From: Lama glama
Lineage: Eukaryota
Reading direction: 5' to 3'
NCBI GenBank assembly: GCA_028534125.1
Contig: JAPYYK010000144.1
Span: 496,001-560,000 of the forward strand
DNA: 64,000 bases
Shown here: piece after piece, positions 10,385-45,676 of the stretch
Layout of the letters: each line of letters opens with the position of its first letter
Numbering within the stretch: position 1 is the stretch's first letter
Notes under the pieces: model-generated
Told to the model about the DNA's origin: nothing
What the model saw: the letters and a program-made list of their open reading frames with translations, nothing else
Databases searched by the model: none
Made by a program: the position numbers and the translations under genes

Positions 10385-10755
10385 CTGGCCTCTGAGTTAC
10401 CCAAGAAGTGTCAAATAGGCAGTTATCATGATTCCTAAGTCTAGAGCTCAGAGATGTGGGGAGAGATGGCACTTTGAGTATTGTCAGTCTATATTTAAAG
10501 TCATAGGAATAGATGAGACCGTACAGGAAGAAAGTGGGAAGGAGAGAAAAGGAGAAATGGCTTGATACCAAGTTTGGGGGAACCCCCAAATTTTTAGGGT
10601 AAGTAGAAGAGGGCAGGAAGGGAAAGAAAACTCACAAGGAGTGACCAGAGGAAAAGGAAAAAGACAAAGATTCTTGGTGTTGCAGAACCAAGAGAGAAAA
10701 GTGTAGAAGAATAAAGAATGGTTAACTATGGAAAATGTTGCTGAGAAGTGGCATA
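10385..10755 (-). mobile_element. L2 fragment
   Basis: gtgtcaaataggcagtt...agtcataggaatagatgagacc...gggggaacccccaaatttttaggg. Confidence 0.75.
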
Positions 10756-10877
10756 CATAAAGACAGAAAACTGACATGATAGTTTTAAAAATCAAAGTAT
10801 GGAAACAACCTAATTTTATATCAACAGGAGGCCAGGTAAATAAATTGTGGTATATTCATGCAATGGAAGACTCTGAG

Positions 10878-11366
10878 TGTAGGCCCCCGACTGTGGGAAC
10901 AAAGGAACGAGCCGTGGGCCGGAATGGTAAACAAGTTAAAAAAAGCTGCAGACTCAGAGGTGAGAAGGCTGGTTAGCCAAGGACGGGTAAGATCCCCAGA
11001 GGGGGGAACCTAAGACACACACAGCCGCCTGAGTCCAGGACGAATGTTGTGAAGCAGCCGTTTCTCATACATTCCACCCTGATAAGCTGTAAGGCTCGCT
11101 GGTGCCAACACGAACATGATTTACCAAAACATAAAGGGTCTTCTGACCTCGAGCCAGATGCTGCCTGTTAACCATTTCCCTTGTCATTCTTCTTTGCTAT
11201 ATAAGACTGTGTAACTTAATAAAGCTTCAGAGTAGCCATCAGCTCTCTCCGCATACGGTGTGTATGTGTACATGGTATCGTGACACTGACATTTGGTGAC
11301 CCCAATGTGATATCAGCGCGGTGAACTACATGTAAGTAAGGGGATAATTTATATCGGGGGCCTACA
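10878..11366 (+). mobile_element. LTR-like retroelement insertion with 13-bp terminal inverted repeats, 5-bp TSD and internal tRNA-Trp PBS
   Basis: TSD CTGAG (10873-10877 and 11367-11371); TIR TGTAGGCCCCCGA (10878-10890) / TCGGGGGCCTACA (11354-11366); TATATAA 11198-11204; AATAAA 11218-11223; CA-TT then PBS at 11290-11311. Confidence 0.9.
11294..11311 (+). other. Retroviral primer-binding site complementary to the tRNA-Trp 3' end
   Basis: TGGTGACCCCAATGTGAT vs canonical TGGTGACCCCGACGTGAT: 16/18, both mismatches are CpG-decay transitions. Confidence 0.85.
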
Positions 11367-11965
11367 CTGAGCAATGAAAACGAATGAGAAGGACAGACGC
11401 TCCCATCAACATGGAAAAATCTCTAAAACCTAATGTTGAACTAAAAAGAAGCAATTGTTACAAAGACAGATATTACTGAAAAGTTAAAAAACATCTAAAA
11501 CTAATATCTATATATTTTTATAGATGCATCTGTATTTAGGAATAATGTAAAAGCAGACAGGAATTATTTTTAAAAAATTGATGAAAGCAGTAACATCTGG
11601 GGAATGTGTAGGGGAAAGTGATCAAAGAAAAGTACATAATAGACATCACCTTATCTAGAATGTACTATTTCTTTTAAAGTTTGAAACAAATATAGGATAA
11701 TACATGAACATTACTGATACAATTTTCCCTTTTTGTCTATATGTTTGAAATATTTCATAATGAAAATTTTAAATGAACAAAATGGACAAGATTTGGCAAC
11801 TTTTTAAGAGTAGTTTTAAATGGAGTAGGTTAAAATGAACTAAAGAGAAAATGAGAGGTAAGGAAGGGTAAATTCTTCTTTTGAGAAGTTTGACTTCCCC
11901 CTCTGAGTGATCTTGGAGAGGTTATTTAACCTCTCTGAAACTCAGTTTTCTCATCCATAAGATGA

Positions 11966-38100: not shown

Positions 38101-38245
38101 AGGGGAAGGTATAGCTCAAGTGGTAGAGTGCATGCTTAGCACGCGTGAGGTCCTGCGTTCAATCCCCAATATTCCATCTAAACATAAATAAATAAATAAG
38201 TCTAATAACTTCCCTCCCCAAAATAATAAAAATAAATTTAAAAAA
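38101..38245 (+). mobile_element. Camelid tRNA-Ala-derived SINE (vic-1 type)
   Basis: ggggaaggtatagctcaagtggtagagtgcatgcttagc...gttcaatcccc with A and B boxes, A-rich tail; TSD taagaatgctcctgaa/taagaatgtttcagaa. Confidence 0.9.
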
Positions 38246-45519: not shown

Positions 45520-45676
45520 ATATTTTTTCAAGTTTTTTTTTTTTGGTTTGTTTGTCTTTATTTTTAGAGGGGATTAGATTTATTTATTTATTTTTAATGG
45601 AGGTACTGGGGGGTTGAACCCAGGACCTTGTGCATGCTAAGCACGTGCTCTACCATTGAACTATTCCCTCCCCCGC
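45520..45676 (-). mobile_element. vic-1-type SINE
   Basis: ggaggtactgggggttgaacccaggaccttgtgcatgctaagcacgtgctctaccattgaactattccctcccc; TSD atcaattatat on both sides. Confidence 0.9.

Follow-up and report, generated by a model that had tools for sequence, protein, structure and literature searches.

Does a camelid genome hold the relic of an alpharetrovirus-like element that was primed by tRNA-Trp and possibly acquired across host classes? This question was raised by a sequence-only reading of a 64,000-nucleotide stretch of Lama glama DNA (the window; assembly GCA_028534125.1, contig JAPYYK010000144.1, positions 496,001 to 560,000), which had noted LTR-like motifs at 11198 to 11311. The motifs are there, but that interval is merely the 3' portion of a 489-bp insertion, 10878 to 11366, which has CTGAG on both flanks and is bounded by a perfect 13-bp terminal inverted repeat. 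The TGTAG start (10878), TATATAA (11198), AATAAA (11218) after a 13-nt gap, and CA-TT followed by a primer-binding site (PBS)-like 18-mer (11294 to 11311) were all located, and the distance from the poly(A) signal to the LTR end, put earlier at about 70 nt, measured 68 nt. The CpG ratio is 0.59 in the insertion versus 0.19 in the whole window. The flanks (10780 to 10877 and 11367 to 11760) resemble what we take to be a single interrupted L1 3' remnant, so that the element presumably inserted into an older LINE. The features of the locus (10873 to 11371) are as follows.

10873 to 10877, plus strand: left copy of the target site duplication (TSD), CTGAG, 5 bp, from the window sequence
10878 to 11291, plus strand: 5' LTR (U3-R-U5) of a class II ERV family, 414 bp, TG...CA; solo-LTR ends coincide with it, with 5- to 6-bp TSDs
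10878 to 10890, plus strand: terminal 13 bp of U3, mirrored at the right end of the insertion as a perfect inverted repeat
11198 to 11204, plus strand: putative TATA box, TATATAA, its function suggested by position
11218 to 11223, plus strand: poly(A) signal, AATAAA, 13 nt past the TATA box, implying a short R
11292 to 11293, plus strand: spacer TT between the LTR end and the PBS (GA in other subfamilies)
11294 to 11311, plus strand: tRNA-Trp(CCA) PBS, 16 of 18 positions matching, both changes at CpG
11312 to 11359, plus strand: first 48 nt of the proviral leader, matching the leaders of other proviruses through 11359
11330 to 11337, plus strand: splice-donor-like motif within the leader, of putative function
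11354 to 11366, minus strand: inverted copy of the U3 end; 11354 to 11359 are common with the leader (6-nt microhomology) and 11360 to 11366 are non-leader
11367 to 11371, plus strand: right copy of the TSD, CTGAG, 5 bp, from the window sequence

The LTR family and its primer site

A genome search with the insertion gave 686 first-look candidates, and all 40 of those scored matched at 91 to 100%. Most scored matches span query positions 1 to ~414, and their ends set the LTR as 10878 to 11291. The window LTR is a member of a multicopy family, beyond chance. TSDs were tallied at 21 loci (30 were fetched; 4 self-matches or duplicates, 2 loci without a found end and 3 5' LTRs with a PBS were excluded). 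This revealed 5-bp duplications at 14 loci and 6-bp duplications at 4, with 3 uncalled, one of which is the 3' LTR of a provirus with a 5-bp TSD. The 5-bp duplication previously described holds for this copy; the family makes duplications of 5 or 6 bp.

The LTR pairs of proviruses L031 and L033 have diverged by 0.037 and 0.050, respectively (K2P), and the median divergence of the window LTR from 24 copies is 0.069 (0.041 without CpG). At a neutral rate of about 2.2e-9 per site per year, these divergences suggest that the family is likely to have spread in the llama genome roughly 8 to 16 million years ago. The scaffold that carries the window (620,897 bases) is a mirror image around a 100-N gap at its midpoint, the compared stretches being 100% reverse-complementary, and matches on C94620 and C404591 also come in mirrored pairs. 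Copy counts in GCA_028534125.1 are therefore inflated, and a second genomic copy of the locus was rejected as a mirror-scaffold artefact. In 14 DNA runs from five organisms, 85 to 89% of the words of 10400 to 11900 were present, a measure by which filled and empty sites are indistinguishable. Four loci (L196, L197, L198 and L071) hold a chimeric LTR of ~790 bp each, in which positions 1 to 281 of the window-type LTR, with the exact TG start, form an internal segment and the 3' end resembles a second Trp-primed family; this is either a nested insertion that was amplified later or a recombinant. We found no description of a Trp-primed camelid ERV in the literature; Repbase and Dfam lay outside the scope of this search, and the LTR may already have a library name. 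The available portion of a survey of camelid transposable elements counts 410 to 679 ERV2 elements per genome and leaves PBS types unmentioned (PMC8605555).

Of the 16 proviral 5' ends, 6 have the exact 18-nt Trp PBS after the LTR. Among the 17 PBS substitutions tallied, 12 fall on the two CpGs (one insertion-bearing copy lies outside this tally), and the two mismatches of the window PBS are both CpG transitions. An exact genome search with the 15 gene-encoded letters found 15 places, namely, six host tRNA-Trp(CCA) genes, six proviral 5' ends of the family, one member of a second LTR family and two unrelated-looking sites, and those 15 letters are the exact complement of the six host genes. 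The initial identification of a Trp PBS is borne out by this complementarity to the 3' ends of host tRNA-Trp(CCA), and the proposal that the family would restore the two CpG positions to the Trp PBS agrees with the tallies above. It is well supported by these matches that reverse transcription of the family would have been primed by tRNA-Trp.

The second LTR family (193 first-look candidates) looks unrelated and consists of class II proviruses that likewise have a Trp PBS. Loci of this and a third Trp-primed family are L206, L207, L208, L080, L228 to L233, L237 and L241, with L232 representing the third lineage. Their dUTPase match is weak in some and absent in others, and their capsids group with the window's family. 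Outside the llama, a search of metagenomes for the pattern CA-NN-Trp PBS yielded 70 stretches of varied make-up, most without a retroviral protein match, and a Trp PBS after CA-NN is thus a common primer choice. The elements among these stretches were of avian and invertebrate type, and no close relative was found among the 70. Contigs L149, L145, L169 and L192 hold Trp-PBS elements of class II that are probably avian; dUTPase is also present in L145 and L149. None of the four is close to the camelid family, the L149 capsid being 22% identical.

The LTR layout had also been read as alpharetrovirus-like. In reference genomes identified through their Gag proteins, the TATA box and the poly(A) signal near the 3' LTR are separated by 16 nt in avian leukosis virus (ALV) and in MMTV, by 14 in SMRV, by 15 in DrERV and by 17 in MPMV, SRV-4 and SRV-8. 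JSRV, ENTV and one ENTV-like genome have a gap of 10 nt; the pattern search gave no match in BoRV-CH15. A 2-nt spacer between CA and PBS is common among the reference genomes too, and, as far as the consulted part of its description goes, EqERV-beta1 has a similar TATA-poly(A) spacing (PMC3185775). Since JSRV, ENTV, SMRV, DrERV, MMTV, MPMV and SRV share the spacing, the layout is not diagnostic of alpharetroviruses. The window element matched eight ASLV-type contigs over the PBS only, save for one 15-bp match (E = 0.049). PBS type and TATA-poly(A) spacing are, on this showing, poor guides to retroviral genus.

Genes of the linked proviruses

The window LTR is 91 to 92% identical to the 5' LTRs of proviruses L031, L033 and L034. 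L031 (5.6 kb) and L033 (5.0 kb) have both LTRs, and these two proviruses, with two partial ones, carry dUTPase, protease, RT, RNase H, integrase and env remnants; no gag was detectable in the window-LTR proviruses. Ten loci form one Pol clade (support 100), two of which, L067 and L075, have kept gag. L075 is 65% identical in nucleotides to L031 over 4.5 kb and contains Gag_p10, Gag_p24, zinc knuckle, dUTPase, RVP and GP41 domains; Pfam matches for the family comprise dUTPase, RVP, Gag_p10, Gag_p24, rve, Integrase_Zn, RVT_thumb and GP41. The L075 gag ends after the zinc knuckles and is followed by pro and then pol, each in the next frame, so that three frames are used; as the copy is decayed, these are indicative only. 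The dUTPase lies after gag in both L067 and L075 (type I order), within pro. A query with this dUTPase matched MMTV, JSRV, MPMV, BoRV-CH15 and one avian Trp-primed element and found no match in ALV or an EAV-like locus. The transmembrane protein (TM) has CX7C and lacks CX6CC; it is 38.5% identical to that of JSRV, 31% to MMTV and 28% to BoRV-CH15, its best solved relative is labelled HERV-K, and it gave no match against ALV Env. The capsid scored 91 bits against HERV-K CA versus 38 bits against RSV CA.

A Ty3/gypsy or class III origin was rejected on the basis of top matches to class II proteins and the presence of RVT_thumb, Gag_p10 and a class II env.

These observations allow the family to be set against the known genera. 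ALV/RSV and EAV share with it the identical 18-nt Trp PBS, the CA-TT junction, the TGTAG start and a poly(A) signal shortly after the TATA box (16 nt; 13 in the window copy), and they differ in having no dUTPase, a CX6CC TM (Avian_gp85, TLV_coat), a capsid of only 24.5% identity and no LTR homology. In alpharetroviruses, the protease lies in the gag frame and a single frameshift leads to pol. The family departs from the alpharetroviruses in three of six tests, these being the lack of dUTPase, the protease and frame layout, and a CX6CC TM with a gp85 SU. Its dUTPase, three frames, beta-type TM and distant capsid speak against membership in the alpharetroviruses. With MMTV, JSRV, MPMV, SMRV, BoRV-CH15 and HERV-K, it shares a pro whose 5' end encodes a dUTPase, the use of three frames for gag, pro and pol, and a gap of 10 to 17 nt, and with MMTV, JSRV and BoRV-CH15 also a GP41-type TM with CX7C. 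The primers of this betaretroviral group are Lys tRNAs. Betaretroviruses are defined, in the part of the source consulted, by a Lys PBS and dUTPase in pro (PMC3621094); the family has the dUTPase in pro, the three frames and a beta-type (B-type/HERV-K) TM and differs in its Trp primer. It combines an alpharetrovirus-type primer with betaretrovirus-type genes and, by its primer, is not a strict betaretrovirus.

In life, the element would have worked as class II LTRs generally do. Transcription would have started just past the TATA box, the poly(A) signal in U3 would have left a short R, which other class II viruses also have, and tRNA-Trp would have primed reverse transcription. The gag-less subfamily may have been packaged in trans by its gag-bearing relatives, and most copies would then have collapsed to solo LTRs. 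The window copy is a dead 489-bp relic.

Several other open frames were noted. L075 retains a 532-codon open gag frame (L075:6240-7838, on C24) that encodes matrix, capsid and zinc knuckles; the rest of this provirus is broken, and its LTRs are 95% alike. The related Equus Gag has been annotated as a gene model in three species. An open frame (L031:3-1244) that we take to be MAGE-like lies some 700 bp upstream of the L031 5' LTR. Also present in the genome are a young family of JSRV-related betaretroviruses, whose open Pol frames reach 885 codons, and class II families with Lys priming, which cluster with BoRV-CH15 (loci of both listed together: L078, L057, L058, L061; L079, L239; L234 to L236, L240).

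Relatives and possible origins

A database search with Gag, in which only 8000 candidates were scored, gave three matches, and the close ones were an Equus protein and one unnamed ENA protein; with so few candidates scored, closer relatives in other mammals may have been missed. The Equus protein cluster covers Przewalski's horse/horse, donkey and zebra, and the horse locus encodes XP_070093070.1/XP_070433844.1. The capsid of the camelid family is 66% identical to the Equus/ENA Gag, 24.5% to ALV and 30 to 35% to betaretroviruses, and capsid trees joined the family to the Equus Gag with support of 100/97 and 100/98. When 14 further class II loci from the llama genome were added, nine rows with a Trp-like PBS and one with an uncalled PBS grouped with the Equus Gag (96/96), revealing two more Trp-primed lineages in the genome. 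This Trp-primed plus Equus group is separate from the Lys-primed rows and falls on the mammalian beta side at 82/71 and 89/92. The link to Equus runs through the gag-bearing L067 and L075, the window subfamily being without gag. A protein atlas search returned generic Gag clusters only, and a metagenome scan for horse DNA of the Equus Gag found no relative.

Pol was analyzed in RT-plus-IN trees under a mixture model, with sets of 21 and 27 rows picked to span the groups (4 and 3 rows, respectively, were dropped for lacking RT or IN); the trees contain no HML, IAP, Hako or EqERV-u1 Pol. The family stands by itself on a long branch (100/100), outside a clade (100/100) composed of ALV and its two nearest rows. 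In the 27-row tree, a betaretrovirus clade (80/90) also excludes it. RT is 34% identical to ALV and 43% to its best database match, ALV scoring no higher than other class II Pol; Pol identity to betaretroviruses is about 40 to 44%, and among 150 listed HMMER matches no Pol relative exceeded ~48% (~40% for full-length ones). Approximately unbiased (AU) tests rejected neither a union with the mammalian Lys-primed set (P = 0.25) nor a sister position to the ALV clade (P = 0.37 with 21 rows and 0.41 with 27). The analysis of full-length proviruses and RT/IN that the earlier reading had called for thus confirms class II and does not place the family within the ALV clade; a sister position to that clade is not rejected. 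Pol would accordingly be read as a deep class II branch between alpha and beta, unplaced on the backbone, and no more; of the two proteins, capsid tells more. The Pol of the second Trp-primed lineage is another deep branch that does not join the window's family with support. That the relic belongs to an uncommon retroviral lineage was correct, in that the family has its own deep class II branch and is neither gypsy nor class III.

Taken together, the feature is probably what is left of one copy of a class II ERV family, namely its 5' LTR, tRNA-Trp PBS and a stub of the leader. The genes of this family are of betaretrovirus type, and the nearest relative we found is an ERV of Equus. Cross-class acquisition could still enter in part, if an avian-side pol and tRNA-Trp priming gained across host classes had recombined with betaretroviral gag, dUTPase and env to make an ungulate mosaic. 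Such a mosaic would fit the PBS and CA-TT junction shared with ALV, the sister position left standing by the AU tests, and the weak lean to the avian side both of the best Pol tree (43/40 and 49/73) and of IN alone in FastTree, which put it beside ALV (82). FastTree with RT plus IN put the family on the beta side (86). By IN, the lead of MMTV over RSV is only 120 bits versus 100 (entries whose species we partly presume), a weak point of the betaretroviral reading. Long branches can attract such rows. The confinement of LTR similarity with ASLV-type contigs to the PBS, an RT no closer to ALV than to other class II Pol, and the commonness of the Trp PBS in metagenomes likewise weigh against the mosaic, which we consider quite improbable. 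A bird origin finds no footing in the nearest relative, which is from Equus, or in the avian Trp-primed elements, which are not sister to the family; it is likely that the family is not a bird virus that jumped into mammals.

The family is probably the camelid sister of an equid lineage. Zhu, Gifford and Murcia reportedly assigned a Trp PBS to the EqERV-u1 lineage in 2018, and camelids and equids both lived in North America ~8 to 16 million years ago, so that transfer between them is plausible at the inferred age of the family. EqERV-u1 is described, in the part of the report available, as confined to Equidae, with a position between the alpha- and betaretroviruses and a dUTPase, and as active in the last 1 to 5 million years with a possible germline presence of >18 million years (PMC5046194). 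Given the match in tree position, the Equus Gag (P0240) is likely to be that of EqERV-u1. The two lineages, set side by side by description rather than sequence, are alike in intermediate tree position and dUTPase and differ in that EqERV-u1 is equid-only as reported and has a type II layout (dUTPase upstream of gag) that is absent in L067 and L075; EqERV-u1 itself shows both layouts, type I and type II. Excerpts of several reports place dUTPase before gag in some equid ERVs (PMC4133949, PMC5682256, PMC8278194, PMC11089739 and PMC8298818). The camelid-equid pattern is a lead, and sparse sampling of intact ORFs could yield the same. It is conceivable, though we hold this only tentatively, that camelids carry an undescribed sister of EqERV-u1, that a Trp-primed class II virus passed between early horses and early camels in Miocene North America, and that the family lies inside a larger Trp-primed clade with at least three camelid germline invasions and may itself stand, as a mammalian branch, between the alpha- and betaretroviruses. 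Should the Equus relative be EqERV-u1, a lineage reported from horses alone would gain a camelid sister and a datable cross-order transmission, and the alpha-/betaretrovirus split would gain extra branches for its resolution.

A published precedent for a Trp-primed class II ERV in mammals is ERV-Hako, which, in the portion of its description consulted, is a primate group II ERV with a tRNA-Trp PBS, 5- to 6-bp duplications and an LTR of ~390 to 400 bp (PMC11905727), and a preprint excerpt gives HML-8 a W-type PBS (10.1101/2022.02.10.479833). The family might then be the camelid branch of the Trp-primed Hako lineage, an old and widespread HML-like group, with the Equus link arising from sparse ORF sampling. 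The class, primer, 5- to 6-bp TSDs and LTR length of Hako agree with this, as does the presence in the genome of three Trp-primed class II lineages in one capsid clade, as after an old radiation. Against it, Hako has primate hosts and host-gene inserts, and its LTR ends, as drawn in Fig. S1 of that report, look by eye unlike those of the window LTR (PMC11905727). Furthermore, the only primate Gag recovered, from Aotus (34% capsid identity; a candidate Hako at most), groups with Lys-primed camelid proviruses. We judge a Hako affiliation unlikely; it is compatible with the anatomy given above and would change only the history.

The right end of the window copy

In the other proviruses, the leader continues past the equivalent of 11359. 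In the window copy, what follows instead is a run of seven bases, with which the reverse complement of the U3 end is complete, and then the TSD. The six bases before this switch are common to the leader and the inverted U3. With equal base frequencies, the chance of seven matching bases plus a 5-bp duplication is about 6 in 100 million. The inverted-end junction was found nowhere else among 12 leader matches or five exact matches to the junction 14-mer: two of the leader matches are the locus and its mirror, none of the other 10 runs into an inverted end, and three of the 14-mer matches are ordinary U3 starts within another LTR. A family of mini-elements with U3-U3 ends was rejected, as no other leader match reaches an inverted end. 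The junction was seen in the assembly only; contigs from four runs had no cover over 11292 to 11400, a hole that proves nothing.

We infer, as a rather likely course of events, that the window copy arose by a template switch in plus-strand synthesis followed by integration of a DNA with two U3-type ends. The plus-strand 3' end would have paired with the U3 5' end through the 6-nt microhomology and copied the last 7 bases, and integrase would have joined the resulting 489-bp DNA to give a normal 5-bp duplication. A normal full provirus could also have lost its interior and nearly all of its 3' LTR later, with a second small deletion in the leader mimicking the U3 end. Beyond a 7-nt gap, the intact leader does contain a motif resembling the inverted end, in which five of the seven terminal bases are present, and part of that end could thus be imitated by deletions. 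The last letters of the LTR are ACA, and a normal TSD would persist. This course nevertheless needs two deletions to produce a perfect 13-bp inverted repeat for which one template switch suffices, and it appears unlikely. An assembly artefact is brought to mind by the mirror-image scaffold with its 100% reverse-complementary halves, where compared. The mirror, however, acts on a scale of 310 kb around a gap and not of 13 bp, and the TSD is perfect on both sides, which makes an artefact very improbable. With the template switch as the preferred reading, the two U3-type ends would illustrate, as a small case from nature, how integrase can accept an aberrant product of reverse transcription.

Elsewhere in the window, ARAGORN called two tRNA-Ala(AGC) genes, at 38104 to 38176 (plus strand) and 45598 to 45671 (minus strand), which may be the heads of tRNA-derived SINEs.
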